Source: Candidatus Adlerbacteria bacterium
GTDB lineage: Bacteria > Patescibacteriota > Minisyncoccia > Phycocordibacterales > SBAW01
Reading direction: 5' to 3'
Assembly (NCBI GenBank): GCA_003135635.1
Contig: PLCJ01000002.1
Span: 109,451 to 173,450, forward strand
DNA length: 64,000 nucleotides
A program made the position numbers and the translations under genes. Below are positions 6,219 through 26,680 of this stretch, one piece after another. Under the pieces are notes generated by a model that was given only the letters and a program-made list of their open reading frames with translations, was not told where the DNA came from and did no database searches. How positions within the stretch are numbered: the first letter of the stretch is position 1; each line of letters opens with the position of its first letter.

Positions 6219-6929
6219 ATGAACATTATCTATTTAGGTACAGCCTTCATTGCAGGTGTCGTGAGTTTCTTATCCCCGTGCGTGCTTCCCATTATTCCCG
6301 GCTTCCTTGCGTACCTTGCCGGTTCAACCCAAGTTGCCTCAGTTACCAAACGTAGGGACATTTTTGTTAATGCGGTGTTCTTCGTGCTTGGTTTTTCAGT
6401 AGTTTTTGCGCTTCTGGGTATTCTTCTCCAGACGATACTTTTATCTGTCGGTTTTGAAGTACAAGCGTGGACTTCGCGCATCGGAGGCATTGTAATCATC
6501 TTCTTTGGTCTCTACTTGGTGGGGCTTATCAAAATAGGGTTTCTCGAGCGGGATCATAAAATCACCATTAAAAAAACGTTCAATTCGCGCTATCTTACTT
6601 CATTCGTCTTTGGTATTGCTTTTGCGGTTGGATGGACGCCTTGCGTTGGGGCAGTTCTCGGCGGAATACTTGCTCTTGCGACATCTGCTCCGCTTTCAGC
6701 TTTTTTGCTTCTTTTTATCTATGCGCTCGGACTCGGACTACCGTTTCTTCTCGTGGGACTTTTTACCGCCCAGGCGACGAGTCTCATCGCTCGAATAGGG
6801 GATCGTTTCAAATACGTCAATATGGCATTCGGTGTTATTCTCATTATCCTCGGGGTATTAGTTTTTACCGAAAATCTGAGTTTGCTGGGGAATTTCAATT
6901 TTATTAATAATCTCTTTCTTGCAAAATAA
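6219..6929 (+). CDS. ccdA: cytochrome c-type biogenesis / thiol-disulfide transporter CcdA (DsbD family)
   Basis: 236 aa, polytopic; conserved Cys in TM1 (LSPCVLPIIPGF) and TM4 (GWTPCVGAVLG), typical of CcdA/DsbD-beta. Confidence 0.75.
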   Translation: MNIIYLGTAFIAGVVSFLSPCVLPIIPGFLAYLAGSTQVASVTKRRDIFVNAVFFVLGFSVVFALLGILLQTILLSVGFEVQAWTSRIGGIVIIFFGLYLVGLIKIGFLERDHKITIKKTFNSRYLTSFVFGIAFAVGWTPCVGAVLGGILALATSAPLSAFLLLFIYALGLGLPFLLVGLFTAQATSLIARIGDRFKYVNMAFGVILIILGVLVFTENLSLLGNFNFINNLFLAK

Positions 6930-8037
6930 TATGAAGCGCAACATCGCACTCATTGCTACACTGGTGCTTATTGTTGGTTCCATACTCTATCTTCAAAGCC
7001 AAAAAGCTGGGCCTACTTCAGTTGCGATAGGCGCCGACACCATCGCAACCAGTAGTGTCCACTCAGCTCAGTATGCTGCAAACTCACTCATATATCCCAT
7101 GGCCCGGGAGCTAGTCTCGCCTGACGGATACATTAATACTGGTGGGGAGCCCATAAAACTCAGTGATCTCGTCGGTAAAAAAGTAATATTGCTTGATTTC
7201 TGGACCTACAGCTGTATAAATTGTCAGCGCACGATTCCATATCTGGAGTCTTGGTATCAAAAATATCAAAACGATGGACTTGTTATTATTGGCATCCATA
7301 CGCCTGAGTTTAGTTTTGAAAAGCAACTGAGCAATGTTGCGACGGCAGTTGCAAACTTCGGTATTACGTACCCGGTGGTGCTCGATAGTAATTACGCAAC
7401 ATGGAATGCCTACAATAACAATTATTGGCCGGAAGAATACCTTATTGATATAGACGGTCTTGTACGCGAGCACAACATTGGCGAGGGGAATTATCAAGAA
7501 ACAGAGACAAATATACAGCAGCTTTTATCTCAACGCGCCCAAACGCTCGGACTCTCGCTCAATATTCCGACGAGCCTTACTACGGTGAATGGAGCGATAG
7601 AGACTAATAGTCCCGAGACATATTTTGATTCATCTCGTAATACGTACCTTGGTGATGGGCAGCAAAACACCCCCGGTGTGCAGATGTTCACTGCCCCCAC
7701 AACATTCGTGCTCAACACGCTGTACTTGGATAAAACCTGGAATATAGAGAGTGAGTACGCTGAAAATATTACCCCAGGCGCGCGCATTATCTACCAGTAT
7801 GATGCGAAAGATGTCTACTTTGTCGCAAGCTCTAAGCTTGGGGTAACTGTAACGGTGCTCATCGATGGCAAACCAATACAAGTGGATAAGGGTGCTGACG
7901 TTAATGCATTGGGTCAGGTATACATTCAAGCACCTCGGCTCTATAAGTTAGTCGAAGGTACAACGCAACAACAACACACGATGGAGCTTATCGTGCAACA
8001 GTCTGGTCTTGATGCATACACATTTACTTTTGGCTAA
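6919..8037 (+). CDS. thioredoxin-like (TlpA/ResA family) thiol-disulfide oxidoreductase with extra C-terminal domain
   Basis: N-terminal signal anchor; WTYSCINCQ CxxC active site in a thioredoxin fold; C-terminal ~150-aa domain as in the DipZ C-terminal region; the true start may be the Met at 6931. Confidence 0.7.
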   Translation: MQNNMKRNIALIATLVLIVGSILYLQSQKAGPTSVAIGADTIATSSVHSAQYAANSLIYPMARELVSPDGYINTGGEPIKLSDLVGKKVILLDFWTYSCINCQRTIPYLESWYQKYQNDGLVIIGIHTPEFSFEKQLSNVATAVANFGITYPVVLDSNYATWNAYNNNYWPEEYLIDIDGLVREHNIGEGNYQETETNIQQLLSQRAQTLGLSLNIPTSLTTVNGAIETNSPETYFDSSRNTYLGDGQQNTPGVQMFTAPTTFVLNTLYLDKTWNIESEYAENITPGARIIYQYDAKDVYFVASSKLGVTVTVLIDGKPIQVDKGADVNALGQVYIQAPRLYKLVEGTTQQQHTMELIVQQSGLDAYTFTFG

Positions 8038-13376: not shown

Positions 13377-13392
13377 GAAGGATGTTGGTAAC
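13377..13392 (-). repeat. motif-like copy overlapping the ATPase 3' end (GTTACCAACATCCTTC)
   Basis: plus strand gaaggatgttggtaac, 13/16 identical to the copy at 12866. Confidence 0.4.
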
Positions 13393-15911
13393 TAATTCTT
13401 AACTAATGCCTTAAAGTACCATACTTTAATAACATCGACTATAAAGAAGTATATAAGTGTCAAAATAGCGAGTATCGCTAGCGTCACTAATGATAGGGGA
13501 GCAAAAGAAAACCATATTTGAAACTGTGGAATATAAATAATGCACAAAGAAAATAGGAATGCTAACGCGAATGAGATATTTAATACTGTAGATGGTTTTT
13601 TTGCGTTCCAAAATGATCTTTCACTGCGAACGCTATAAAATACAATCAACGCGATAAAGGTTAAAAATATATAGAGACTTGTCTCAACATAGCGTTGCGG
13701 TTCCAAACGAATGAGTAAAAAATAAAAAATTTCAAATAGTGCAGTTGGAATACCAAGAAGTATAGAAAGAAACATAAGTCTACGCACGTTATGTTTTTCG
13801 GGTCGTACCACCTCCTCGTCCGTAGTGCTATCAGTAGAAATCATAATCATGGGAATATCAGTAATAAGGCTGGTGAGCAAAATCTGTATAGGCAGAAGCG
13901 GCAAATCTGTTGAAAAGAGATAAAACATTGATAGGGCAATGAAATTACCGAAATTACTCACCATGGTGTGCTTGATATATTTATTTATGTTGACGAAAAT
14001 TGAACGTCCATATTTAATCCCGTTGATAATAACCTCAAGGCTGCTTTTTAGCAGAACAATATCAGCATTCTCTTTTGCAATGTCTGTTGCCGAATTTACT
14101 GCTATTGCTACATCTGCTAATTTTAGTGCAGGCGCATCGTTGATCCCATCACCCTGATAGGCAACGACATACTGCTTTTTGAGTATTTTAATAATGTTAT
14201 ATTTTTGCGTGGAGGTAACCCTGGCAAAAATATTACTTGTGGTAATTGCCGCTTCAAGCTGGCTCGGGGACATTTTTTCAAGTTCATTCCCAAGATACAC
14301 CTGCCCGCCTTCTTTCATTAACCCAATTTGCTCTCCAATATATTGAGCTACCTCTCTGCTATCTCCGGTGAGAATTTTAATGCGTATGCCTAATTTTTCT
14401 GCTCGCTGAAGAGTATTTTTTACACCCGGGCGTAATGGATCGTCCATAGAGACATACCCCAAGAAAGTAAGTCCTTCCTCGTGTTTGAGAATATCGAAAT
14501 CATCACTATAGGAAACCTCACGGTAGGCAAGAGCTAAATGGTGTAATCCTGTTTTACCTTCCTTGGTAATGTTCTCTAGATATGCTGCGGTATGGACATG
14601 CTTGGTTATCTGAAGCAATACTTCTGGGGCGCCGATAACAACCAGAAAATATTTTTTAGTATGCGTATCCTCCAAAACCATCCTGCTTCTTCGGTCATTG
14701 GGGTCAAACGGTAATTCTTTAATAATCCGTAGTGCTGCTGCCTTCTTTTTGAGTGACTCTGACACATAGTTGAAAAATGCATCATCGTAGGAATTTTGTG
14801 TTCTATGTTTTCTTGTTTTTAGTGGTGCAATAGCAGCAAATGCAAGGATTTGAAACAACTCAACATCGCTTGAGACAACACTGCGTATTTGCATCTTATT
14901 CTCTGTAATAGTCCCCGTTTTATCGGTACACAAGAGATTTACGTTTCCAAGATCCTCCAGTGCCGACAGCCTCTTCACCACAACGTGCTTTTGAGCCAGT
15001 GCGAGAGCTCCACGGGAAAGAGAAATGGTGGCAATGACTGGCAATACCTCCGGTACCACCGCAACGGCCATTGCAATAATAAATAACAAAAGACCACTAA
15101 TGTTGGATAATCCTCCGTTGAGAATGAGCTTTGAAATGAAGAGTGCCGCCAAGCCTATGAAAACAAACTTAACAAGAAATGTGCTAAATGATTGCAGCGA
15201 CTGCTCATAGGGTGTTTCTTTTTTTGTGGAGAGCGATAACTCTGCAATGGCTCCGAGCTCAGTGTTTTTTCCAGTCGCATACACGACACCTACCGCAACG
15301 CCCCTCTCAATGATGCTCCCAGTAAAAACTAAGTTTTTCTCTGAAAGAGCATGCTCTTTTGAGACTTGTTTTATCACGGGCAATGATTCTCCGGTAAGTT
15401 GTGATTCATTGACCTCTAAATCTGTTACCTGAAGTAATCGCATATCTGCGGGTACAATATCTCCCTCGCGAATCATGAGTACATCGCCTGGAACTATTTG
15501 TGTAGTATCAAGGAGCATCTCCTTGTCATCACGTCTGAGCCTCACCTGCGTCGTAATGAATTGCTCGAGTTTTTCTATAATTTTTTCAGATCTATATTCT
15601 TGAAAAAAACTTAGCGTTATATTGATAAGTAGGATAACCGCAATAATAGTGCCATCTGAATAGTCCCCGATACTATAGGAAATAAGTGTTGCCGCGAGCA
15701 GGAGATATACAAGAGAACTGCGCAACTGACGAATTAAAATGGTGCGCGCATGGTCATGGTGTCTTACGAATACGTTTTTACCGTAGCGAAGAAGTCGTGC
15801 GTGCGCATCGCTTTGGCTAAGACCCCCTATTGATGTCTCAAGCCTACCGAGAAATTCCTCTGTACTTAACGTAAGAACTTCTTTTTTATCCATACCAGAA
15901 TAGTCCATCAT
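13392..15911 (-). CDS. cation-transporting P-type ATPase (MgtA/Ca2+-ATPase-like)
   Basis: phosphorylation motif CTDKTGTITENKM, TGES, PEVLP in TM4, hinge GDGINDAPALKLADVAIAV; 10 predicted TM helices. Confidence 0.9.
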   Translation of the reverse strand: MMDYSGMDKKEVLTLSTEEFLGRLETSIGGLSQSDAHARLLRYGKNVFVRHHDHARTILIRQLRSSLVYLLLAATLISYSIGDYSDGTIIAVILLINITLSFFQEYRSEKIIEKLEQFITTQVRLRRDDKEMLLDTTQIVPGDVLMIREGDIVPADMRLLQVTDLEVNESQLTGESLPVIKQVSKEHALSEKNLVFTGSIIERGVAVGVVYATGKNTELGAIAELSLSTKKETPYEQSLQSFSTFLVKFVFIGLAALFISKLILNGGLSNISGLLLFIIAMAVAVVPEVLPVIATISLSRGALALAQKHVVVKRLSALEDLGNVNLLCTDKTGTITENKMQIRSVVSSDVELFQILAFAAIAPLKTRKHRTQNSYDDAFFNYVSESLKKKAAALRIIKELPFDPNDRRSRMVLEDTHTKKYFLVVIGAPEVLLQITKHVHTAAYLENITKEGKTGLHHLALAYREVSYSDDFDILKHEEGLTFLGYVSMDDPLRPGVKNTLQRAEKLGIRIKILTGDSREVAQYIGEQIGLMKEGGQVYLGNELEKMSPSQLEAAITTSNIFARVTSTQKYNIIKILKKQYVVAYQGDGINDAPALKLADVAIAVNSATDIAKENADIVLLKSSLEVIINGIKYGRSIFVNINKYIKHTMVSNFGNFIALSMFYLFSTDLPLLPIQILLTSLITDIPMIMISTDSTTDEEVVRPEKHNVRRLMFLSILLGIPTALFEIFYFLLIRLEPQRYVETSLYIFLTFIALIVFYSVRSERSFWNAKKPSTVLNISFALAFLFSLCIIYIPQFQIWFSFAPLSLVTLAILAILTLIYFFIVDVIKVWYFKALVKN

Positions 15912-15948: not shown

Positions 15949-17646
15949 ATGGAGCGTATGTCCTTAACGGATGAATTGAGGGAGGTAGTACGAGGTGAAG
16001 TGGAAGATTCGCCGGAGGTACTTCAGCAATACTCGCGCGACGCGAGCCTTTTTGTTATACAACCACAAGTAGTTGTGCGTCCTATGGATGCACAAGATGT
16101 ATGCACGGTGGTACATCTTGTAAGCACAAAAAAACAGGCACCAAAGTCTCATATTTCAATTACCGCTCGCTCTGCAGGCACGGATATGTCAGGCGGTCCT
16201 CTTAATGATTCGATCATTCTTGACATGACTCGGCATTTCAATCGCTTGATTGAGCTTGGTGACAATTACACCATCGTAGAGCCAGGCATGTATTTCAGGG
16301 ACTTTGACCGTCAGACGCAAACAAAACACCTCGAGCTTCCGAGCTATACTGCTTCCCGCGAGATCAACACGGTGGGAGGTATGGTTGCCAATAATTCAGG
16401 GGGCGAAAAAAACCTTAAATATGGGAAAACTGCGCGCTATGTAGAGGAGCTTGAAGTGGTGCTTGCAGACGGACAAGTGCATACCCTCAAATGCCTACGG
16501 GGTGAAGCACTACGTGCCAAATGTCTCGAGCGAAGCTTTGAGGGAGAGGTATATCGTGCCCTCTCTTCGCTCATTTCGACTAATCGGGATGTCATTGAGG
16601 CAGCCAAGCCCGGGGTAGAGAAAAATTCTTCTGGATATGCGCTTTGGGAGATGGGAGATGGCACCGAGTCACTTGATCTTGCTCGTCTTATGGTGGGGGC
16701 TCAGGGAACGCTTGGCATTATTACCAAAATTCGATTTTCACTCATTAACCCCAAGCCCTATGCGGCTATGGTCATAATTTTTTTGCACAGTCTTTCTGAG
16801 CTGGGCAGTATCGTGTCGCCAGTTCTTGTGCATGAGCCGGATAGTTTTGAATCCTATGACGACCACACCTTTACTCTTGGAGTGCGATATTTCCCAGAGT
16901 TTGCAAAACAATTAAAAATGAACTTTATTTCACTTGTGCTTTCTTTTCTACCTGAGATGTGGATGGTAATAACGGGTGGGGTGCCGAAGTTGGTTCTCAT
17001 GGTGGAGTTTCGTGCTCGCTCTCAGGAAGAGGCGCTTAATAAGGCAGAAGATTTGGCAGAAGAAATTGAACATACAAATCCTCGTGTTTCACTGCGTGTG
17101 GCTTCTTCTGAGCGTGCAACACGGAAATATTGGCTTTTGAGGCGGGAGAGTTTTAATCTTCTGCGCAAAAAAGTTCGGGGCTTGCGCACCGCTCCTTTTA
17201 TCGATGATTTTGTGGTTCCGCCCCAGAAGCTTTCGGAATTTCTCCCTAAACTTGATGCAATCCTATCAACGTATAATCTCACGTACACCATTACGGGCCA
17301 TGTGGGTGACGGAAACTTCCACATCATCCCTCTGATAAACCCCAAGGAGACACGCCTCCCGCATCTTATCGATGAACTGTCACACAAAGTGTACGATCTC
17401 GTTCTTTCTTATCACGGTTCAATTACCGGGGAGCATAATGATGGAATTGCTCGGACACCCTATGTAGAAAAAATGTTTGGTCCTGCCATGTACGCACTTT
17501 TCCACGAGGTAAAAAGCATACTCGATCCGCACAATATTTTTAATCCGGGGAAAAAGGTAGGACTTACTTTCTCCGAGGCCCTTACGTATCTTGATCTTCC
17601 GCCCCAAGTGGTGGTTACGCAAACCCAGGAAAGAAATCAGTCTTAA
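15949..17646 (+). CDS. FAD-linked oxidase (GlcD / D-lactate dehydrogenase family)
   Basis: N-terminal FAD-binding PCMH-type domain (MSGGPLNDSIILDM, GGMVANNSGG) and C-terminal FAD-oxidase domain. Confidence 0.8.
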   Translation: MERMSLTDELREVVRGEVEDSPEVLQQYSRDASLFVIQPQVVVRPMDAQDVCTVVHLVSTKKQAPKSHISITARSAGTDMSGGPLNDSIILDMTRHFNRLIELGDNYTIVEPGMYFRDFDRQTQTKHLELPSYTASREINTVGGMVANNSGGEKNLKYGKTARYVEELEVVLADGQVHTLKCLRGEALRAKCLERSFEGEVYRALSSLISTNRDVIEAAKPGVEKNSSGYALWEMGDGTESLDLARLMVGAQGTLGIITKIRFSLINPKPYAAMVIIFLHSLSELGSIVSPVLVHEPDSFESYDDHTFTLGVRYFPEFAKQLKMNFISLVLSFLPEMWMVITGGVPKLVLMVEFRARSQEEALNKAEDLAEEIEHTNPRVSLRVASSERATRKYWLLRRESFNLLRKKVRGLRTAPFIDDFVVPPQKLSEFLPKLDAILSTYNLTYTITGHVGDGNFHIIPLINPKETRLPHLIDELSHKVYDLVLSYHGSITGEHNDGIARTPYVEKMFGPAMYALFHEVKSILDPHNIFNPGKKVGLTFSEALTYLDLPPQVVVTQTQERNQS

Positions 17647-19126
17647 TGTGTCTGCCGGGAATCCCGAGATCTGCAAGCGTTTTTTTAAAACCTTCCACCA
17701 TACTATTTGGTCCTGATATATAGAATATGCGCTCAGAGTAATCAGGTACTTCCCGCGCAATAAGCTCCTTAGTGATCATGCCGGTGTGGAAACCCTCAAT
17801 AGGCGCTTCATCTGTTATGGCATACATTACCCTGAGCCCAAGCACAACGCGGGCTTTGTCAAAGATTTCCTTGTACGCAATATCACCACGCGTTCTATTT
17901 GAGTAAAAAAGTACAATATCTCGCTTTTCCCGCTTCCCCAGCAAATACGTTATCATGCTGCGAAAAGGAGTAATACCAATGCCGCCTGCAATAAAGACGA
18001 GTTTGCGTTTTGGATTTGAGGGCAACGTAAAATCACCTCCCACGCGCAGTGCGCTTAATGATTGCCCCGGCCGCATTGCGGCAAGGGCATCCTTGAAAGA
18101 ACTAGCAGGTTCAGTGAATTTAACACCAAGACGAATGTTTGATTCAGTAGGGGAGGAAGCAATAGTGAAATAACGTCGGTTACCCCGGCTGTCGGGCTTT
18201 TCATGCGGAAATGTCCACTCCATGTATTGCCCGGGGCGAAACGTCAGCATACGATCGGAGGAAAAAACAAAATCAGAACTGCTTTGACTCGTTCTCTCTA
18301 TAGCGTTGAGCGTGAGGATCATTCTGCCTTTGGGATTAATAAAACTGGAAAAGAAATTACCAACAATAAGCGCCAACTCCGGTGTCGAATATAAGGAGCC
18401 GATATGAATTGCGGGAGCAAATAAGGCTCCCACAAGTGCGCCGTACCCAAGCCGTATAGGGCGCCGTGAGGGTGTAGTTATAGGTTCGGTAAGCATCACA
18501 AATCCCAAAAAAAGAAGCGGGGAGCCAACGAAAACTTTCTGCAACAAATCAAGCAGGTTGTAAGAAGGAGCAGTAATCCACACGCTTAGAAGTGCTGCTA
18601 TGGTGAATGTGCATACGAGATCAAAACGTTGCATTTTGCGCAGCAATAACAAACCACCGATGAGCACAAAAGGTAAAAGGGGAACATTGCCCCCCACCCA
18701 CCAACTGGCTCCTTGACCAAACACAAGCCCCATAACTACCACAGCAAGAGCGGCGGGGTTAAATATTGGACTCTTGTTCAAGGTAAGAAGATATTTTGAG
18801 GTGATGGCAATAGCTGAGAGTAAAACAAGATAAAATACCCCCAACATATTCAAAGGACTAACGGGGCTTACAATGAGCGCGAGGATGAGCGCCGTGATAT
18901 ATGTCGACTCAACGTTTGTTGGGGCAGAGAAAAGAAATGCGCAGAGCTTATTTATAAGCAAGCAGGAGAAAGTAATAAGAAGCGCTGAAAAGAGAATAGC
19001 AACCGGTGTAAAGGGCAGAAGCGCAAAAAATCCAAATACTATGGCCGCCGCAAGCAGCGCCAAGAGATAATAGAGCGTGAGGCGATACATCGTAATGCCG
19101 TTAAGCACACGATCAATGGGGTTCAT
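17615..19126 (-). CDS. membrane-bound FAD/NAD(P)-binding oxidoreductase (polytopic N-terminal domain fused to a ferredoxin-NADP reductase-like domain)
   Basis: ~240-aa multi-TM N-terminus; C-terminal FNR-type FAD motif RRYFTIASSP (RxYS/T) and NAD(P) motif LVFIAGGIGITPFRSM. Confidence 0.7.
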   Translation of the reverse strand: MNPIDRVLNGITMYRLTLYYLLALLAAAIVFGFFALLPFTPVAILFSALLITFSCLLINKLCAFLFSAPTNVESTYITALILALIVSPVSPLNMLGVFYLVLLSAIAITSKYLLTLNKSPIFNPAALAVVVMGLVFGQGASWWVGGNVPLLPFVLIGGLLLLRKMQRFDLVCTFTIAALLSVWITAPSYNLLDLLQKVFVGSPLLFLGFVMLTEPITTPSRRPIRLGYGALVGALFAPAIHIGSLYSTPELALIVGNFFSSFINPKGRMILTLNAIERTSQSSSDFVFSSDRMLTFRPGQYMEWTFPHEKPDSRGNRRYFTIASSPTESNIRLGVKFTEPASSFKDALAAMRPGQSLSALRVGGDFTLPSNPKRKLVFIAGGIGITPFRSMITYLLGKREKRDIVLFYSNRTRGDIAYKEIFDKARVVLGLRVMYAITDEAPIEGFHTGMITKELIAREVPDYSERIFYISGPNSMVEGFKKTLADLGIPGRHIKTDFFPGFA

Positions 19127-19872
19127 AGTGTTGTGTATGCTTCAAAGCCGCTAGTCATAGTTGCGATGCCTTCCGTATCAATACTGTATCCTTCAAAACC
19201 TTTTAATGATTCGATAAACATCATACCTTGTTTTCCCATAGCAAAAGCACCCGTTGCAAAACGATCTGCTTCGCACACGTCGGGGCCAATGATGGTGAGG
19301 CTCACCGGATCAAGTATTGCCTCTGTGGGCGCATGTGGATTATAAATGTGCTGTCCACGCACGTAGGTGCCTGAAGTGGCTACTCCGTGGCCTCGTGGAT
19401 AGAGTACTTTTACTATTTCCTCTGTTTGAAATGGATTACGGATTCCCACGCTCCACGGATTTTCTTGGTTATTGTGTCCTGAAGATTGAATATCTCCGCC
19501 AGCATCAATGAAGAAGTCCCGGTATCCTAAGTTGCGCAGCAGGTCTGCAGCATTTCGTATTGCCCAGCCCTTGACGACTCCTGATGGATCTATGGATCCA
19601 TCGGGTCTTTGTATATTAAAGTAACCCCCTGTCTCTTGGTGCGTTTTTTGCGCAAGAGAGAATACTTCTTGCATTTCTTTGCTCCACTGCTGCTTTTGGA
19701 TCTCCTTGCGGTTTATTTGCATCACTTCGCTAGTGTATTTGTACGTGCTAAAACGTTCATCTACCGCAGTAAAATATTTAAATACTTTATTAATGGCATC
19801 TTCTGCTCGGGAACTGTCAGATACCACCTCGACAGTAATGGGCATTCCCATAATAAGTCGGCTCTGGCGCAT
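19123..19872 (-). CDS. apbE: FAD:protein FMN transferase (ApbE family)
   Basis: ApbE blocks VVKGWAIRNAADLL and FFIDAGGDIQ; 4-nt overlap with the downstream oxidoreductase gene. Confidence 0.8.
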   Translation of the reverse strand: MRQSRLIMGMPITVEVVSDSSRAEDAINKVFKYFTAVDERFSTYKYTSEVMQINRKEIQKQQWSKEMQEVFSLAQKTHQETGGYFNIQRPDGSIDPSGVVKGWAIRNAADLLRNLGYRDFFIDAGGDIQSSGHNNQENPWSVGIRNPFQTEEIVKVLYPRGHGVATSGTYVRGQHIYNPHAPTEAILDPVSLTIIGPDVCEADRFATGAFAMGKQGMMFIESLKGFEGYSIDTEGIATMTSGFEAYTTL

Positions 19873-19881
19873 ACCCGGGTC

Positions 19882-20343
19882 CTATGACGCTTGTGTAAGC
19901 GCGGAGGAGAGAGATTGTACAAATGCCCCACTTGATTGGGTTGCCCCTGAAACGGTGTTGACTTGTGCACTTTGAGCGGCAATCGCTTCACTTCTAAGAA
20001 TAGGCAGGGCATAGCTACTTACTTCCTGAGAGTGCGCCTGATCACTTGGATACTGGAGGAACGTCACATCCGTAAGTCTGCCACCTTGTATAAGAATTTG
20101 TACTTGCAGAGGACCATAAAATGCGTCTGCCGTAGAACCAGTATACGTGCCATCTTTATATGTGCCCGCTGTTGTAGCAACGACAGGAGTGGGACTATTT
20201 GTACTCGTGCTTTGAGTGGTGGGGGTGGGAGTTGAGGGAAAAGGACTCAGGGCTATGATCTTTGAAGAAGATACACTATTCCACCAGGCGTAGGCGCCGA
20301 GTGCTATGAGTAGTAGTGCTGCAAGTATAATTTTTTTCATCAT
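19882..20343 (-). CDS. FMN-binding domain lipoprotein (NqrC/RnfG/PplA-like), predicted ApbE substrate
   Basis: signal/anchor MMKKIILAALLLIALGA; FMN_bind domain with flavinylation motif NTVSGATQSS ([S/T]GAT). Confidence 0.75.
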   Translation of the reverse strand: MMKKIILAALLLIALGAYAWWNSVSSSKIIALSPFPSTPTPTTQSTSTNSPTPVVATTAGTYKDGTYTGSTADAFYGPLQVQILIQGGRLTDVTFLQYPSDQAHSQEVSSYALPILRSEAIAAQSAQVNTVSGATQSSGAFVQSLSSALTQAS

Positions 20344-20345
20344 TA

Positions 20346-20750
20346 TTACTGAGTTGAAGTTGGAGGGAGAGGGCTTCCCACAGGACGGATTTGGACTGAC
20401 TGGGCAGTTACGCTGCCGTCGGCATTTGTAGAGCCCGTCACCACGACGTTGGTTCCAACAGCTAAATCATTAAGCGTGCCACTGGCAGATTTCATCACTT
20501 GTGTTGCACTGCTGACCAGCACGATTCTGGTGCTGCCACTTGACATCTTTACCGTAACACTGCCGGAGCCCTCAGTAATGATTTGCCCCGAGGTAAAGTT
20601 AGCACCAGCGCGCGCGCCAGTCCCTGGAGTGAACTGGCCACCGGTAAACTGACTGCGTGCGGCTGGGTGTGCTTTTTGATAGGCCGTCCCGCCCCAAAAT
20701 GAGCCCCCGGCAATGATAATGACTCCTATGATTAGCAAAAATGTTTTCAT
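20346..20750 (-). CDS. hypothetical secreted Gly/Thr/Ser-rich protein
   Basis: 134 aa; N-terminal TM/signal; low-complexity beta-rich sequence. Confidence 0.45.
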   Translation of the reverse strand: MKTFLLIIGVIIIAGGSFWGGTAYQKAHPAARSQFTGGQFTPGTGARAGANFTSGQIITEGSGSVTVKMSSGSTRIVLVSSATQVMKSASGTLNDLAVGTNVVVTGSTNADGSVTAQSVQIRPVGSPLPPTSTQ

Positions 20751-20839
20751 ATCTAATGTGTGTTAGCAGATATTAAATCATACGTGGTAGTAAGACATTT
20801 GGTGCACAAAAGAGATCACTCATCTTAATTATTGCTTTT

Positions 20840-22066
20840 CTATTCATATCGCAGTGCTTCGATGGGATTAAGTGAAGCAGCACGACGAGCGGGATAATAA
20901 CCAAATATAATACCAATTATTGCTGAAACTCCGAAAGCCAATACTATAGCTATCCACGATACGGTAGTATGGATTACTCCTGAATAGGAAACACCGAGAG
21001 AAATCGCCACACCAAGAATAATACCGATTGTCCCTCCCACAAGCGTTAACGCTACTGCTTCGGTTAGGAACTGAAGGCTAATGTCACCTTGTTTTGCGCC
21101 GATTGCCTTACGAAGACCGATTTCACGGGTACGTTCTGTTACTGTGGTAAGCATCATATTCATAATACCAATTCCTCCTACAATAAGAGAAATACCAGCC
21201 ACGGCAGCAAGTAATATGGTAAAAGTTTGGGTAATACTGTTGGCAGTGGCAAGGAGGGTACTTTCGTTGAGGACACTAAAATCAGCCTGCGCGGGGTTGC
21301 TAATATTGTGGCGCGTTAAGAGAAGGTCCGTGATATCATTTTGCACTTGTGTCATCACACTGGCGTCTGTGGCTTGGACATCTATCGTGGAGAGGTATTG
21401 ATTGCCCGCGAGATACTGCTCGGCACTTGTTGCAGGAATATATATCATATCGTCTTGATTATTAAATCCACTGCTACCCTTGCTCACGGTTATGCCGATG
21501 ACAGTAAATTCAAGGTTCTTGATGCGAATTATTTGCCCCACAACCCCCACCGCACCAACTCCAAAAAGGTCATCTCGAGCGGTAGGACCTAGCACCGCGA
21601 CTTTCGCCAGTGAAGTATTTTCCTGGTCGGTAATGAAAGAACCTTCTGCAATCTGGATGTTACGGATTTGTGGATACGCAGACGTTACTCCATCAACTGA
21701 GGTGTTGGTGTTAGTCCCCCTTGCGGTTATTTGGTAGCGACCGGATACTTCTGAGGCTACTGCTGCAATATTTGTTACTTGGGAGGCGATAGCATCTGCA
21801 TCTCCCTGCGTAAGACTGCGTGCCGTTCCACGACCACTTGATACCTGAGAGCCTGGCCCCCCCTGGGCTCCAGGAGTTATTTCTATGAGATTTGATCCAA
21901 GTGATTGGATACTACTTTGTATAGAACTTTGTGCACCTTGCCCTATGGAAACCATAGCAATGACAGATGAAATACCGATGACAATGCCAAGTACGGTGAG
22001 CCCGGAGCGTATTTTGTTTGCCGAAAGGGCAGTGTATGTTTCTTGTAGAATATCGCCAAACTTCAT
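20840..22066 (-). CDS. ABC transporter permease, MacB/FtsX-like
   Basis: N-terminal TM, large extracytoplasmic domain, C-terminal 3 TM (FtsX fold). Confidence 0.8.
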   Translation of the reverse strand: MKFGDILQETYTALSANKIRSGLTVLGIVIGISSVIAMVSIGQGAQSSIQSSIQSLGSNLIEITPGAQGGPGSQVSSGRGTARSLTQGDADAIASQVTNIAAVASEVSGRYQITARGTNTNTSVDGVTSAYPQIRNIQIAEGSFITDQENTSLAKVAVLGPTARDDLFGVGAVGVVGQIIRIKNLEFTVIGITVSKGSSGFNNQDDMIYIPATSAEQYLAGNQYLSTIDVQATDASVMTQVQNDITDLLLTRHNISNPAQADFSVLNESTLLATANSITQTFTILLAAVAGISLIVGGIGIMNMMLTTVTERTREIGLRKAIGAKQGDISLQFLTEAVALTLVGGTIGIILGVAISLGVSYSGVIHTTVSWIAIVLAFGVSAIIGIIFGYYPARRAASLNPIEALRYE

Positions 22067-22070
22067 AACA

Positions 22071-22769
22071 TTATGTGGTCTGCCCTGGGCGATTGCGGTG
22101 GTCAGAGAGGATCACCCCATCTCGAAGGGTAATGATGCGTCTGGCATGGGCTGCGACATGCTGCTCGTGGGTGATGAGCACTACGGTACAGCCCTGTTTT
22201 TCGTTGAGCTCTTGAAAGGTACTCAGTACGATTTCTCCGGTCTTGCTATCAAGGTTACCAGTTGGTTCATCGGCAAGTATCAGCGAGGGATCGTTTACCA
22301 GCGCTCGGGCTATCGCCACACGTTGTATCTGACCGCCGGAGAGTTCATTGCTGAGATGAGAAAAATGGGTCTTTGTGAGACCCGCAGCCAGAAGTGAAGT
22401 AGACGCACGCTCTTCGCGGTTTTCTTCATCAACTCCCGCATATATAAGCGGCAGCATCACGTTGCGCAAAACAGTTGTACGAGGTAAAAGATTAAAGGAC
22501 TGAAAAACAAAACCAATTTTATCTTTTCGTATTTCGGCAAGCTCGTCATCTTCCATTTTCGAAACATCCTTTCCGTCAAGGAAGTACGTTCCTGATGTTG
22601 GGATATCAAGGCACCCCAAAATATGCATCAGGGTAGATTTTCCTGAGCCGGACGGTCCCATGATAGCGACAAACTCGCCGTCATTAATAGTAAACGATAC
22701 TCCCTTGAGTGCTTGGAGCGCCATTTCTCCAGAGCCGTAGGTCTTAGTGATATCTTTTATTTCAATCAT
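22071..22769 (-). CDS. ABC transporter ATP-binding protein (MacB/LolD-type)
   Basis: Walker [10 protein letters not shown], signature [15 protein letters not shown], Walker [12 protein letters not shown]. Confidence 0.9.
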
Positions 22770-22792
22770 TACTCTTGCCGTCCATAGTCTCG

Positions 22793-24565
22793 TTATAATC
22801 CGATGGTCCTGGCACCACCTCCACCAAAACCAGTGCGGCTGGTGCTGACCGCAGCTGCTGAGGCAGTCGTTTGTCCCGTAGTGGTGCGTACAACAATTTG
22901 CTCTCCTGCTGTTAACCCGGAGACTATCTCGGTATTCGTGTTATCGGTGAGTCCCGCTACAACAGGGACTTGCTGGGGCGCTACGCTGGAGAGTACTCCT
23001 TGAGTGCTCCCAGTATTTGCCAGCGGGGGAGTAAACACCAGAACATATGTTGCAGCAGCTTGTGTCGTTTTGACGGCACCTGAAGGGACGGTGAGTACAT
23101 TTTGATGCGCGGCAGTAATGATTGCTGCACTGGTTGTCATGCCTGCTTTTATGCGTGGGTCTTGGGAATCAAATCCCACCTGCACATCGTACGTCACCAC
23201 TCCTTGGCTTACGGTGCCAGTCGGATTTATTTGTGCCACCACTCCGGTGAGTGTGAGACCACTGATAGCATCAAAAGTGAGAGTAGTTTCGTCACCCAAC
23301 TGTATCTTTGCTGCATCGACTTCATTGACCTGAAGATCAACATACTGCTTTGTCGTGATGAGGGTTGCTAGGGTCGTACCGGAGCCAGCCTGGTCGTACA
23401 CGTGAACGGGCACGGAGCCAATGACACCAGAAAAAGGTGCAGTGATATAATATTCTGCAAGGGTATTTTCTGCCTGCTGAAGCGCTTCTTGTGCTTTCGT
23501 TATGCTCAATTGACTGGACTCCACATCGATAGGATCAGCTCCCGCTTGTGTTTGCTGTAGGGTTTGCTGTGTTACGGTGATGTTATTTTTATCGGTCACG
23601 AGAGTATTGCTATCGGAAAGGAGAGTCGTGAGATGCGACTGCGCTTTGCTTTGATAACTATTAAGGCTAGCTATCTGAGTTGCGGAAACGGGCTTTGGCG
23701 TTGCACCATTTTTGGTGAGTTGATCAGTGTAAAATCCAAGAAGGTTGTTTGAGCTGGTGACCGCCGTCGCCAGAAGTCCTGTTGTTACGTCCGTCTCTTT
23801 GAGCAAGTTCTCAATTGTCTGCGGGTCGGGAGTCGAACTTACTGCCTTGAAATCAGAAAGCGTCTGGTCATAGGATTGCCGCGCAGCCAGATAGTCGTTG
23901 TATGCGATCGTACGATAGGAGGATGCCTGCGGGCTGTATTGAGAGGCCTGCGTGGTGTAATAATCCATATTCCATTGGCTTGCGCCTCCTGCTTCGCTGC
24001 CGAGATTGATGTCTTGAAGACCAGCGATGATGGTAGGAAGATCAAGAAAAGTATTGGTGATGTCGCCAAATGTACTTTGATACAAGCTCGCCAGAGCTTG
24101 TTGGGCCTGAGTGATTGAGTCTTGTTGCTGGGTGAGCGTGAGGGCGGTTGAGGGCTCCTGTAGTTTTTGAAGTGCCAACTGCGCACTTTGTAAATTTTCT
24201 TTGGCGCTTTGCACTGCTTGTTGTGCGGTGGTTGAGTTTAACTGCGCAATAACCTGTCCTGCTCTCACTTGTTCTCCCGGTTTGACCGCGATGTAGGTGA
24301 TTTGTCCGGAGACTTGAGGTTGGATATTGAGCGTGTCAGTTGAGGTGATCTGTCCGCTCTCTGACACGGACGCAACGATAGTGCCTGTCGCCACACCACC
24401 CAGCACGTAGCGTGTCTGGTTGTTCGTGTTTGTGGCTAAGGCAGATGTTGCCCACCATCCTGCCCCCACGAGGCCGAGCACTATGATAGCGCTCCATACC
24501 TTATGTCGCACGATGAAGTTTTTTATCGCTCCAATATATCCTTTTATTTTTGTTCGTACGGCCAT
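22793..24565 (-). CDS. HlyD-family periplasmic adaptor (membrane fusion protein)
   Basis: N-terminal TM anchor, lipoyl-like hairpin segments, very long Q/A/T-rich coiled coil, C-terminal beta-barrel region. Confidence 0.7.
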   Translation of the reverse strand: MAVRTKIKGYIGAIKNFIVRHKVWSAIIVLGLVGAGWWATSALATNTNNQTRYVLGGVATGTIVASVSESGQITSTDTLNIQPQVSGQITYIAVKPGEQVRAGQVIAQLNSTTAQQAVQSAKENLQSAQLALQKLQEPSTALTLTQQQDSITQAQQALASLYQSTFGDITNTFLDLPTIIAGLQDINLGSEAGGASQWNMDYYTTQASQYSPQASSYRTIAYNDYLAARQSYDQTLSDFKAVSSTPDPQTIENLLKETDVTTGLLATAVTSSNNLLGFYTDQLTKNGATPKPVSATQIASLNSYQSKAQSHLTTLLSDSNTLVTDKNNITVTQQTLQQTQAGADPIDVESSQLSITKAQEALQQAENTLAEYYITAPFSGVIGSVPVHVYDQAGSGTTLATLITTKQYVDLQVNEVDAAKIQLGDETTLTFDAISGLTLTGVVAQINPTGTVSQGVVTYDVQVGFDSQDPRIKAGMTTSAAIITAAHQNVLTVPSGAVKTTQAAATYVLVFTPPLANTGSTQGVLSSVAPQQVPVVAGLTDNTNTEIVSGLTAGEQIVVRTTTGQTTASAAAVSTSRTGFGGGGARTIGL

Positions 24566-24591
24566 ATGTGCAGATTTTTTTGTATAAAATT

Positions 24592-25056
24592 TTACTGTTG
24601 TCTAGGGGGAAGTGGCATGGGCGGCAGTATGCGGATAAGTTGCGCTTCAATATACCCTTGCGTGTCGGGCTCTCCCAACACAATTACTGCCTCTCCTTGG
24701 CTGAGTGTGGTACTTGTTGCCTCACCATGAATGATCGTTGAGGTGCTAACAAGAATAGTCTCGCTACTACCGGTACGAGTCTGCAGAGTAAGCAGTGGCA
24801 ACGCGACGTTTGTTAGGGTGCCCACCGCTCCATGACCGTCTTCTATAAATTCGTGTGGGAGAGGAAACATACCAAATGGTGTGGCAAAGGATCCAGGACC
24901 GTGATTAAACGGAGGAACACGCTCAAAGCCATGCCGCTCAGCCTCAAATAGCATACCGAGATTGAAAATAAGTATGACAACAATGCAGCCACCGAGGATA
25001 CCAAGCCCCATACGCGTGCGCCGCGACTCCCAGATTTTTTTTACCTCATCAGACAT
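24592..25056 (-). CDS. hypothetical single-pass membrane protein
   Basis: 154 aa, one TM (LGILGGCIVVILIFNLGMLF) and an extracytoplasmic domain. Confidence 0.45.
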   Translation of the reverse strand: MSDEVKKIWESRRTRMGLGILGGCIVVILIFNLGMLFEAERHGFERVPPFNHGPGSFATPFGMFPLPHEFIEDGHGAVGTLTNVALPLLTLQTRTGSSETILVSTSTIIHGEATSTTLSQGEAVIVLGEPDTQGYIEAQLIRILPPMPLPPRQQ

Positions 25057-25065
25057 AGCAACGCC

Positions 25066-25482
25066 TTATGCGCCTACTGGAGTAAATGCATATCGAACAT
25101 TGCGTGGTATGCGTGAAAGTGACCACCCAAATACTCCTGCGCATACAAGTACGCCTGCTATTGCAAAGGAAGGCAATGATTCAAGAAGCAGGTAGCTGAA
25201 GGTTTGCCAAAAAGAGAAAATTACGTTGTGATCGGAAACCATAAGAGAAAGATAATCATAAAATCCCGAAGCATAAAATTCCTGAACCGCGTAGGAAAGT
25301 GCGGAAATAAGAGCAACACCAGAAAAAAGTGCCACTGTGGCGGTTATGCCTATTTGGATACGGGCAGCACGACGCCGCACAGCAGCAACGTGCTGAAGTA
25401 CGACTCCACAAAGAGCCTGAGGAGGCACAACTTCTTTTAGAAACGTGTACAGATAATCCTGCATGCCAATACATACGAACAC
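25066..25482 (-). CDS. hypothetical membrane protein (candidate anti-sigma factor)
   Basis: 138 aa, several TM segments, immediately downstream of the ECF sigma gene; the role is inferred from position only. Confidence 0.35.
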   Translation of the reverse strand: MFVCIGMQDYLYTFLKEVVPPQALCGVVLQHVAAVRRRAARIQIGITATVALFSGVALISALSYAVQEFYASGFYDYLSLMVSDHNVIFSFWQTFSYLLLESLPSFAIAGVLVCAGVFGWSLSRIPRNVRYAFTPVGA

Positions 25483-25548
25483 CAGGCTCTATTTGGTGCG
25501 CCCAGCCTCCCGATACATAGAGGGGGAAGTATGGGGCTATCCAGGCAA

Positions 25549-26115
25549 TCAAGGTGATGCATCCAGGAGTTTGCGCAAAATTATAAGGGCTCGGTAGTGT
25601 CGACTTTTAACGGTGTTCGTAGGTTGCTTGAGGATTTTGCCTATTTCTTCAAAAGTCAGTCGGTTCGTGTAATGGAGTAGCAGCACATCACGTTGAGAGG
25701 GAGGGAGAGTGGTTATTGCTTCTTGCAGATCCTTTTCGTCCTCGCCTCGTATCATCATTTCTTCTGCAAGGAGCTCAGTATCGGATACCGTCTCTTCGAG
25801 AATATTTTTCCCTTGGGCGGTTTCAAATGTCGAAAACGGAATTTGTTTTTTCTTGCGTATCTTGTCAACAGCGGTGTTGCGTGCGATACGCATAAGCCAT
25901 GTGGTAAATTTTCCTGCGCTTACCTTGTATCGATGTATATTCCGCCATACTTTCACAAATGTCTCTTGAGTGATATCTTCTGCATCATATTCGCTTCCCG
26001 TGAATCGCAGAGCAAAGGAATATACCATAGTGAGATTGCGTCGCGTGAGTTCCTCAAAAGCGTTTTCATTTCCGCGCACGTATAAGGCGATAAGCTCTTC
26101 ATTGGATTGCTCCAT
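25549..26115 (-). CDS. ECF-type RNA polymerase sigma-70 factor
   Basis: region 2 (TMVYSFALRFTGSEYDAEDITQETFVKVW) and region 4 HTH (LTFEEIGKILKQPTNTVKSRHYRAL); start placed at the internal MEQSNEEL Met; the track ORF extends to 26184. Confidence 0.8.
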   Translation of the reverse strand: MEQSNEELIALYVRGNENAFEELTRRNLTMVYSFALRFTGSEYDAEDITQETFVKVWRNIHRYKVSAGKFTTWLMRIARNTAVDKIRKKKQIPFSTFETAQGKNILEETVSDTELLAEEMMIRGEDEKDLQEAITTLPPSQRDVLLLHYTNRLTFEEIGKILKQPTNTVKSRHYRALIILRKLLDASP

Positions 26116-26680
26116 GATGCGTAAGTATACTGTACCCATGCAACAAGAAACTATTGTGCTTGGGGGAGGGTGTTTTTGGTGCACCGAAGCAGTTTTTAGA
26201 CGACTGAGGGGGGTTACTTCAGTTCAATCTGGCTACACGGGAGGACACATAAAACATCCCACGTACGAAGCGGTCTTGGGGGGCAACACGGGTCACGTGG
26301 AAGTTATAAAGATCGAGTATGATCCCGACCAGATCGCTTTTGAAGAAATTTTGCACATCTTTTTTACCAGTCATGACCCGACGACACTCAACCGGCAGGG
26401 GAATGATGTTGGAGTGCAATATCGCTCGGCGATTTTTTATACAACCCCACGCCAACAAGCCAAAGCACAACACTACATCGATGTTCTTAATCATCATGGA
26501 TATACAAAGCCAATTGTCACTACCGTGGAACCGCTTGAGGTGTTTTATCCGGCCGAAGAGTATCATAAAAATTATTACGAGACTCACGCAAATGCACCTT
26601 ACTGTGAATTGGTAATTGCGCCTAAAGTAAAAAAAGTCCAAGAAAAATTTCCGACGTTAATTAAAAAAGATGAGTCCTGA
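26114..26680 (+). CDS. msrA: peptide methionine sulfoxide reductase MsrA
   Basis: GGGCFWCTEAVF active-site motif; the true start may be 26114 or 26138; the track ORF from 25970 has a non-homologous N-terminal extension. Confidence 0.85.
   Translation: MMRKYTVPMQQETIVLGGGCFWCTEAVFRRLRGVTSVQSGYTGGHIKHPTYEAVLGGNTGHVEVIKIEYDPDQIAFEEILHIFFTSHDPTTLNRQGNDVGVQYRSAIFYTTPRQQAKAQHYIDVLNHHGYTKPIVTTVEPLEVFYPAEEYHKNYYETHANAPYCELVIAPKVKKVQEKFPTLIKKDES

Follow-up and report, generated by a model that had tools for sequence, protein, structure and literature searches.

A probable NQR/RNF-like electron-transfer system with its own shortened ApbE homologue in Candidatus Adlerbacteria

The 64,000-nucleotide stretch of a Candidatus Adlerbacteria genome considered here (assembly GCA_003135635.1, contig PLCJ01000002.1, a 340-kb metagenome assembly; hereafter the window) carries on its minus strand three adjoining genes, which encode a small anchored protein with a domain of the FMN_bind family (FMN, flavin mononucleotide), a homologue of the flavin transferase ApbE, and a 503-residue fusion of a polytopic membrane domain to a module of the ferredoxin-NADP reductase (FNR) type that binds flavin adenine dinucleotide (FAD) and NAD(P)H. 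In our judgement this locus is probably an NQR/RNF-like system, that is, a two-subunit relative of the sodium-translocating NADH:quinone oxidoreductase (Na+-NQR) and of the RNF complex, equipped with an ApbE of its own; it is an ordinary new example of a published class, and the system itself is not new. The genes, with the domain calls that an earlier note on this DNA had attached to them, proved real by open reading frame calls and by Pfam matches above the cut-offs.

The class was delimited by Méheust et al. (2021, eLife, PMC8238504), whose passages on the system describe clusters associated with flavinylation in which PF03116 and PF00175 are fused in one protein, encoded no more than five genes away from an FMN_bind or ApbE gene, and report the system from 127 genomes, mainly of Actinobacteria and the candidate phyla radiation; taken together with the corresponding passages of PMC11334425, its published occurrence comprises the candidate phyla radiation, Actinobacteria and Chloroflexi. 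The part of a later study that deals with the system (Huang et al. 2024, mSystems, PMC10979944/PMC11334425) presents an AlphaFold-multimer model of the Ktedonobacter complex, describes the flavinylation site of NqrB/RnfD as not conserved in the membrane subunit, and suggests that the flavin site of the membrane subunit is entered by the flavin which the NqrC/RnfG-like subunit binds covalently (PMC11334425). At the present locus PF03116 and PF00175 lie in one 503-residue polypeptide whose gene adjoins those of the PF04205 and PF02424 proteins, which is the arrangement of the published definition, and the features described by Huang et al. are likewise present: the flavinylated threonine of RnfD/NqrB is not conserved, and an NqrC/RnfG-like partner carries the motif NTVSGAT.

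The membrane domain, which the earlier note had considered not placeable in a named family, is by profile and predicted fold a member of the RnfD/NqrB family. Its Pfam match to PF03116 (NQR2_RnfD_RnfE), at residues 154-264 of the fusion, reaches 36.2 bits against a cut-off of 27.7, and the search of the N-terminal region, of the kind that the same note had proposed, returned no match to PF01794 (FRD). Single-sequence searches of the PDB and a Foldseek search with the full-length model gave FNR-type matches only, and none for the membrane domain; the domain was placed by means of a family profile, built from 25 homologues, and of a model of the domain by itself. The sole PDB match of the profile was Azotobacter RnfD (8ahx_D, E=0.0027), and an hhalign comparison with E. 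coli RsxD (from NC_000913) gave 87% probability, the aligned part being the C-terminal half. The AlphaFold2 model of residues 1-272 (predicted local distance difference test score, pLDDT, 83; predicted template modelling score, pTM, 0.82) has ten helices in the membrane domain, and its first 15 Foldseek matches in the PDB were all RnfD (template modelling score, TM, up to 0.71) or NqrB (0.54-0.62), those that followed being urea transporters at E>0.2.

A global alignment with E. coli RsxD indicates what this domain has lost. The RsxD loop of about 80 residues that contains GISQAT187 has no counterpart in the fusion, the motifs NPFNPA and LT[DE]PxT that flank the loop in RsxD are kept, and neither SGAT nor GAT occurs in the fusion sequence; as judged from the alignment, the extracytoplasmic loop bearing the covalent-FMN threonine of RnfD and NqrB is deleted. 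An invariant A[ST]WW motif at residues 140-143 was considered as a vestigial flavinylation site and rejected, given that it aligns with the "TSW" of RsxD just before the deleted loop and that its threonine/serine position is occupied by valine or isoleucine in 7 of 120 homologues. Four acidic residues near the membrane (E73, D169, E214 and E250) are invariant in the family, and the single histidine of residues 1-265, H241, is nearly so. The earlier statement that the domain has essentially no conserved histidine must therefore be qualified, whereas its corollary, that this is not a haem-binding ferric reductase, agrees with the lack of a PF01794 match. Lysine and arginine cluster in alternate loops of the domain (K118; R163/K164/R167; R221/R222/R225; K266/R268) and are absent from the other loops, and by the positive-inside rule this distribution would put both termini of the ten-helix domain in the cytoplasm and with them the FNR module, where the path drawn in the earlier note needs it to be.

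That module resembles NqrF. PF00175 (NAD_binding_1) matches at residues 378-481 of the fusion with 55.1 bits, NCBIfam alignments extend over residues 271-499, and among PDB sequences the FAD domain of NqrF matches best (7qty, E=1.3e-9). The module consists of an FAD-binding barrel with RYFT at residues 318-321 (R318, T321) and an NAD(P)H-binding domain with GGIGITP at residues 381-387, so that of the two motifs named previously GGIGITP is present as described, whereas RxYS is not found literally and has RYFT as its equivalent. The full-length model (pLDDT 86.3) matched flavohaemoglobin reductase, NqrF and SpNOX dehydrogenase domains in Foldseek, and the fusion protein contains no ferredoxin-type 2Fe-2S domain.

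The partner subunit (PF04205, 29.4 bits, cut-off 22) comprises a signal or anchor helix at residues 1-24, a linker rich in proline, threonine and serine, and the FMN_bind domain at residues 76-149; in the sequence the hydrophobic helix is followed by AYA. The SGAT at residues 132-135 (19939-19950 in the window) makes Thr135 the predicted site of FMN attachment, and the wider pattern [DN]xx[ST]GA[TS], placed 15-20 residues before the C-terminus in every case, is shared by 78 of 79 homologues. In these 79 proteins the flank before the anchor helix holds on average 2.0 lysine or arginine residues and the flank after it 0.8, the N-terminal one being the more positive in 60, a bias that indicates an N-in/C-out topology and with it a predicted outward orientation of the FMN_bind domain. 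The N-terminal helix, this bias and the conserved motif accord with the export and flavinylation that had been proposed for the protein, and of its former description as a secreted, anchored lipoprotein with SGAT the anchor helix and the motif hold good. The lipoprotein part does not, since the whole sequence contains no cysteine; a lipobox-like motif was detected in one of the 79 relatives, and a twin-arginine motif in none of the 79.

Relatives of the fusion are numerous. The database holds thousands of homologues, of which the best 120 are all about 505 residues long with 53-60% identity, the named ones among these being RnfD from Patescibacteria, and the membrane-domain profile retrieved 584 clusters (50% identity) at E<=1e-30, mostly about 500 residues in length, meaning fused. 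When one genome for each GTDB species was scanned, a confirmed relative appeared in at least 594 species; the best 80 of these represent many Patescibacteria lineages, Chloroflexota, Actinomycetota and Alphaproteobacteria, the last including cultured Mesorhizobium isolates. In 81 related loci, in which open reading frames were called and compared by jackhmmer and all-against-all BLAST, the fusion is present throughout, accompanied by the FMN_bind partner in 78 and by ApbE in 72, and in about 70 of the loci, belonging to four phyla, the genes abut or overlap in the order FMN_bind-ApbE-fusion. Such co-occurrence, mostly in the same order across 81 independent loci, is not chance, and the two genes are the only conserved neighbours of the fusion, although in about 10 loci that of ApbE is displaced or absent from the cluster.

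At the locus itself the ApbE and fusion genes share four nucleotides (ATGA, with the TGA stop of ApbE inside), an overlap which, similar ones being common in the relatives, suggests translational coupling, and nine nucleotides separate the end of the FMN_bind gene from the start of the ApbE gene. The earlier note had given both of these spacings correctly, but the gap of two nucleotides that it added leads to a fourth gene outside the three (20346-20750, 134 residues, minus strand), which ends two nucleotides ahead of the FMN_bind gene. A read-through fusion of FMN_bind and ApbE across 19873-19884, where TAG and ATG are in frame, 12 nucleotides apart with three sense codons between them, was also considered and set aside: the frame and the spacing differ among relatives, and the in-frame arrangement is thus probably chance.

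The third protein of the module was called an ApbE homologue by the earlier note, and both its Pfam match (PF02424, 135.5 bits) and its matches to E. coli ApbE structures (E about 1e-19) uphold the call. An N-terminal lipoprotein or secretion signal that places the enzyme outside is typical of ApbE proteins, though not universal. The ApbE of the cluster, judged from its sequence and hydropathy, lacks a signal peptide, a lipobox and any hydrophobic segment and starts seven residues ahead of the first conserved strand motif (MGMP). Aligned with PDB entries, its residues 13-87 correspond to 27-103 and its residues 86-237 to 153-314 of E. coli/Salmonella ApbE, and about 50 internal residues of the canonical enzyme (104-152 in E. 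coli) are missing. The signal-less form is constant, occurring in 72 of the 81 loci in four phyla and in the 120 closest database proteins, which are 237-280 residues long, show 60-69% identity and share the same N-terminus, MGM standing at residue 8 in 80 of them. The segments KGWA, AGGDI, TSGTY, HIYNP and EADRFAT, conserved in this mini-ApbE clade, align to E. coli ApbE, and with these segments retained the mini-ApbE looks functional. Searched with the family hidden Markov models, the window yielded neither another ApbE gene nor another gene for an FMN_bind protein. With neither an export signal nor a hydrophobic stretch the enzyme is predicted to be cytoplasmic, and its substrate domain outside, so that the predicted location of ApbE is at odds with the accepted maturation route. 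Cytoplasmic ApbEs are known, but for cytoplasmic reductases (PMC12052999), and the passages on the NQR/RNF-like system in PMC8238504 and PMC10979944/PMC11334425 do not discuss a signal-less, shortened form.

The path that we infer from the domain identities, the fold, the predicted topology, the conserved motifs, the loss of the RnfD loop and the synteny, with its cofactors, its direction of flow, the flavinylation and the acceptor, would be the following. NAD(P)H would reduce FAD in the cytoplasmic NqrF-like module of the 503-residue protein, and the electrons would traverse the membrane via the fused RnfD/NqrB-like ten-helix domain, which, having lost its own covalent-FMN loop, presumably holds a non-covalent flavin; they would then reach FMN covalently bound to Thr135 of the anchored, outward-facing NqrC/RnfG-like subunit, and this subunit would hand them to an extracytoplasmic acceptor, the ApbE homologue of the cluster serving as the dedicated flavin transferase. 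A route from NAD(P)H through a membrane flavoprotein to an ApbE-flavinylated protein outside had been outlined before the present analysis, which supports it, and the same route is proposed in those parts of PMC8238504 and PMC11334425 that treat the system. A fermentative cell of the Patescibacteria type might use the system as a sink for NAD(P)H; iron reduction and redox maintenance in the envelope are the other candidate roles.

Several points weigh against this reading. The PF03116 match of the single sequence spans only the C-terminal half of the membrane domain, the match of the family profile to RnfD in the PDB is marginal (E=0.0027), and the topology was derived from hydropathy together with the positive-inside rule. 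The signal-less ApbE, a trait of the whole family, is predicted to lie inside and the FMN_bind substrate domain outside, and the enzyme is without the internal residues noted above. Among the 81 loci no gene for a terminal reductase or acceptor is conserved beside the module, and we found no experimental study of the NQR/RNF-like system, the literature that came to light being two bioinformatic and AlphaFold papers.

The location of ApbE invites an alternative which retains all the parts and changes only the ApbE step, namely that the enzyme works in the cytoplasm. It might attach FMN to the C-terminal SGAT of the FMN_bind protein while that protein is crossing the membrane by Sec or earlier, in which case FAD would not have to be exported, or it might stay permanently in the cytoplasm as a stoichiometric subunit, or as a flavin-loading factor, of the RnfD-FNR protein, and not be a maturation enzyme of the outside at all. 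The start of ApbE just before MGMP without a hydrophobic segment, the constancy of this form in loci of four phyla and in the 120 nearest homologues, its conservation, which exceeds that of the fusion (60-69% against 53-60% identity), the ATGA overlap with its suggestion of translational coupling, and the precedent of cytoplasmic ApbEs for cytoplasmic reductases (PMC12052999) all favour such a placement. We nevertheless regard it as unlikely, given that the lack of a signal peptide is a judgement from sequence and hydropathy, that no twin-arginine motif was seen in the 79 FMN_bind partners, and that we found no report of a protein exported by Sec after flavinylation, no search having been aimed at that; the displacement or absence of the gene in about 10 loci, moreover, is more what one would expect of a catalytic maturation factor than of an obligate subunit.

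Two further alternatives concern the membrane step. In Na+-NQR and RNF the cation path has been proposed to run through NqrB and RnfD. The complete RnfD/NqrB fold and the invariant acidic residues near the membrane could accordingly mean that the domain couples electron transfer to the movement of Na+ or H+, as a minimal redox-driven ion pump, or in reverse that an ion gradient drives the reduction of NAD(P)+ from an external donor. However, the module lacks NqrD/E, RnfA/E and the second half of the semicircular path, from which the account of the system in PMC8238504 derives a unidirectional, uncoupled flow, and the simplest interpretation is that NAD(P)H is the donor to a module of the FNR type, so that coupling of this kind seems to us quite improbable. 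We give hardly any credence to the view that the locus is a homologue of the Listeria-type extracellular electron transfer (EET) locus (PplA/FmnB/Ndh2/EetAB/DmkA) or encodes a haem-based enzyme of the ferric-reductase/NOX kind. The logic of cytoplasmic NAD(P)H feeding an outward-facing flavoprotein is the same, and a weak PplA match and the SpNOX dehydrogenase domain among the fold matches of the FNR module point that way, but the NCBIfam PplA model scored 20.1 bits against a cut-off of 325, which leaves the comparison with PplA/FmnB/Ndh2 made in the earlier note valid as an analogy of outline and not as homology. Furthermore, genes for Ndh2, EetA/B or quinone synthesis are absent from the cluster, a lipobox is lacking in the FMN_bind protein, and the membrane domain, with one histidine and no PF01794 match, has the RnfD/NqrB fold. 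The NQR/RNF-like assignment, with electrons passing outwards to a flavinylated partner, is thus the one that we prefer.

The prevailing view is that Patescibacteria (the candidate phyla radiation) possess neither respiratory chains nor quinones. A conduit of two proteins leading from NAD(P)H to the outside would be among the few routes open to them for the disposal of reductant, for iron reduction or for keeping up the redox state of the envelope, and the occurrence of the system in cultured Mesorhizobium renders it genetically testable. A cytoplasmic-looking ApbE facing an outward substrate also bears on how covalent flavoproteins arise outside the cell: were the enzyme indeed cytoplasmic, an extracytoplasmic covalent flavoprotein would, under the pre-export variant, be built without FAD export, and the system would be far commoner in Patescibacteria than surveys requiring a signal peptide have reported. 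The mismatch between the places of enzyme and substrate also suggests that surveys based on signal peptides undercount flavinylation in these lineages, and such a filter may lie behind both the low count of NQR/RNF-like systems and the conclusion, in the relevant part of PMC8238504, that the candidate phyla radiation is under-represented. The interest that remains attaches to the acceptor and role of the system, to its abundance in organisms without respiratory chains and to the location of ApbE.

The module lies at the downstream end of ten co-directional minus-strand genes separated by short gaps (17615-26184), which encode in order an extracytoplasmic function (ECF) sigma factor, a small membrane protein, a 154-residue paralogue of the 134-residue protein, a membrane-fusion protein, an ATP-binding cassette (ABC) ATPase, a MacB permease, the DUF5666-like 134-residue protein, FMN_bind, ApbE and RnfD-FNR (Table 1), and parts of this arrangement recur in relatives. 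The ABC block (20346-24565), co-directional with the module and directly upstream of it, is accessory and not core, the membrane-fusion/ABC/MacB genes and the DUF5666-like protein adjoining the module in about 13 of the 81 loci. The 134-residue DUF5666-like gene was considered as a fourth component of the module and rejected, as few loci have it and it accompanies the MacB block (for example in locus L055), not the flavin genes.

Table 1. Positions in the window of the module, its parts and the genes upstream of it
Feature	Position	Strand	Basis
FMN_bind gene, NqrC/RnfG-like subunit, 153 residues	19882-20343	minus	Open reading frame and Pfam PF04205
ApbE gene ("mini-ApbE"), 249 residues	19123-19872	minus	Open reading frame and Pfam PF02424
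RnfD/NqrB-FNR fusion gene, 503 residues	17615-19126	minus	Open reading frame and Pfam PF03116, PF00175
RnfD/NqrB-like membrane domain of the fusion, residues 1-265	18332-19126	minus	
NqrF-like FNR module of the fusion, residues 268-503 plus stop	17615-18325	minus	
Predicted ApbE flavinylation motif NTVSGAT, residues 129-135 of the FMN_bind protein	19939-19959	minus	
Anchored DUF5666-like protein, 134 residues	20346-20750	minus	Pfam/NCBIfam
MacB/FtsX permease	20840-22066	minus	Pfam/NCBIfam
ABC ATPase	22071-22769	minus	Pfam/NCBIfam
Membrane-fusion protein	22793-24565	minus	Pfam/NCBIfam
ECF-type sigma-70 factor	25549-26184	minus	Sigma70_r2 and Sigma70_r4_2

Regulator genes recur beside the module, sigma genes homologous to the present one adjoining it in 13 other loci and pairs of response regulator and histidine kinase lying near it in about 22, and this recurrence suggests that its expression is controlled by signals, the ECF sigma factor being a possible regulator here. 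A scan for promoters and terminators gave promoter-like sites at or below expectation and terminator-like sites inside genes, and so left the limits of the operon undefined. In eight variant loci without an adjacent ApbE an NAD-dependent D-2-hydroxyacid dehydrogenase is encoded upstream of the module. A search for a conserved acceptor gene brought up nothing beyond regulators, genes of ABC transporters, a P-type ATPase and 2-hydroxyacid dehydrogenases, none of which recurs in more than a minority of the loci.

On the other side of the module the window contains a P-type ATPase of 839 residues (13392-15911, minus strand), which scored best against type III H+/Mg2+ models, under their cut-offs, and ATPases like it are neighbours of the module in about 9 of the 81 loci, Mesorhizobium included. 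Between the two, on the plus strand, an FAD-linked oxidase gene (GlcD or D-2-hydroxyacid dehydrogenase-like; 15949-17646) converges on the RnfD-FNR gene with a 3' overlap of 32 nucleotides. In five Patescibacteria loci a protein of 396-428 residues without a Pfam match is encoded directly downstream of RnfD-FNR (for example L003, 7541-8731, and L005, 7615-8901); it is absent from the window. The plus-strand region 6219-8037 encodes a DsbD_TM/CcdA-like membrane protein (PF02683), whose gene overlaps the next by 11 nucleotides, and then a 372-residue AhpC/TSA-Redoxin and Thioredoxin_10 protein with a hydrophobic N-terminus, the two forming a second, thiol-based transmembrane electron-transfer pair in the window. 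Divergent from the ECF sigma gene is a plus-strand reading frame (25970-26680) with the motif GGGCFWC, whose product we take to be MsrA-like.

Compared with known systems, the locus shows no difference of architecture from the NQR/RNF-like system. Relative to the survey of 127 genomes, as its passages on the system report it, relatives were found here in at least 594 species, among them cultured Mesorhizobium, and, set beside the published descriptions in those same passages, the module here is preceded by a MacB-type ABC block and by the gene of an ECF sigma factor. No multi-subunit NQR or RNF operon was encountered around it, the neighbours being ABC-transporter components, the P-type ATPase and the FAD-linked oxidase. 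With Na+-NQR (NqrA-F plus ApbE) it shares homologous NqrB-, NqrC- and NqrF-like (FAD/NAD) modules and the flavinylation motif on the NqrC-like subunit. Unlike that complex, it is without NqrA, NqrD and NqrE and without the 2Fe-2S domain on the NqrF-like part, its NqrB-like part, with the covalent-FMN loop deleted, is fused to the NqrF-like one, and in place of a semicircular path to a quinone, an acceptor for which there is no evidence here, a one-way path is proposed. With RNF (RnfABCDGE) it has in common the best structural match, RnfD, and a partner subunit resembling RnfG, whereas RnfA, B, C and E and the ferredoxin-linked iron-sulfur subunits are missing and the donor module is of the FNR type. 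The EET system of Listeria monocytogenes is similar in outline, leading from cytoplasmic NADH across the membrane to a covalently flavinylated surface protein with a dedicated ApbE-family enzyme, but its membrane step proceeds via Ndh2 and demethylmenaquinone, its PplA and FmnB are lipoproteins, and the membrane components are not homologous. Lastly, the NOX/FRE/MsrQ-like enzymes also fuse a polytopic membrane domain to a cytoplasmic FNR-type dehydrogenase and send electrons outwards, but they do so with two b-haems on conserved histidine pairs in six helices, whereas the protein described here has a ten-helix RnfD/NqrB fold and is presumably flavin-based.

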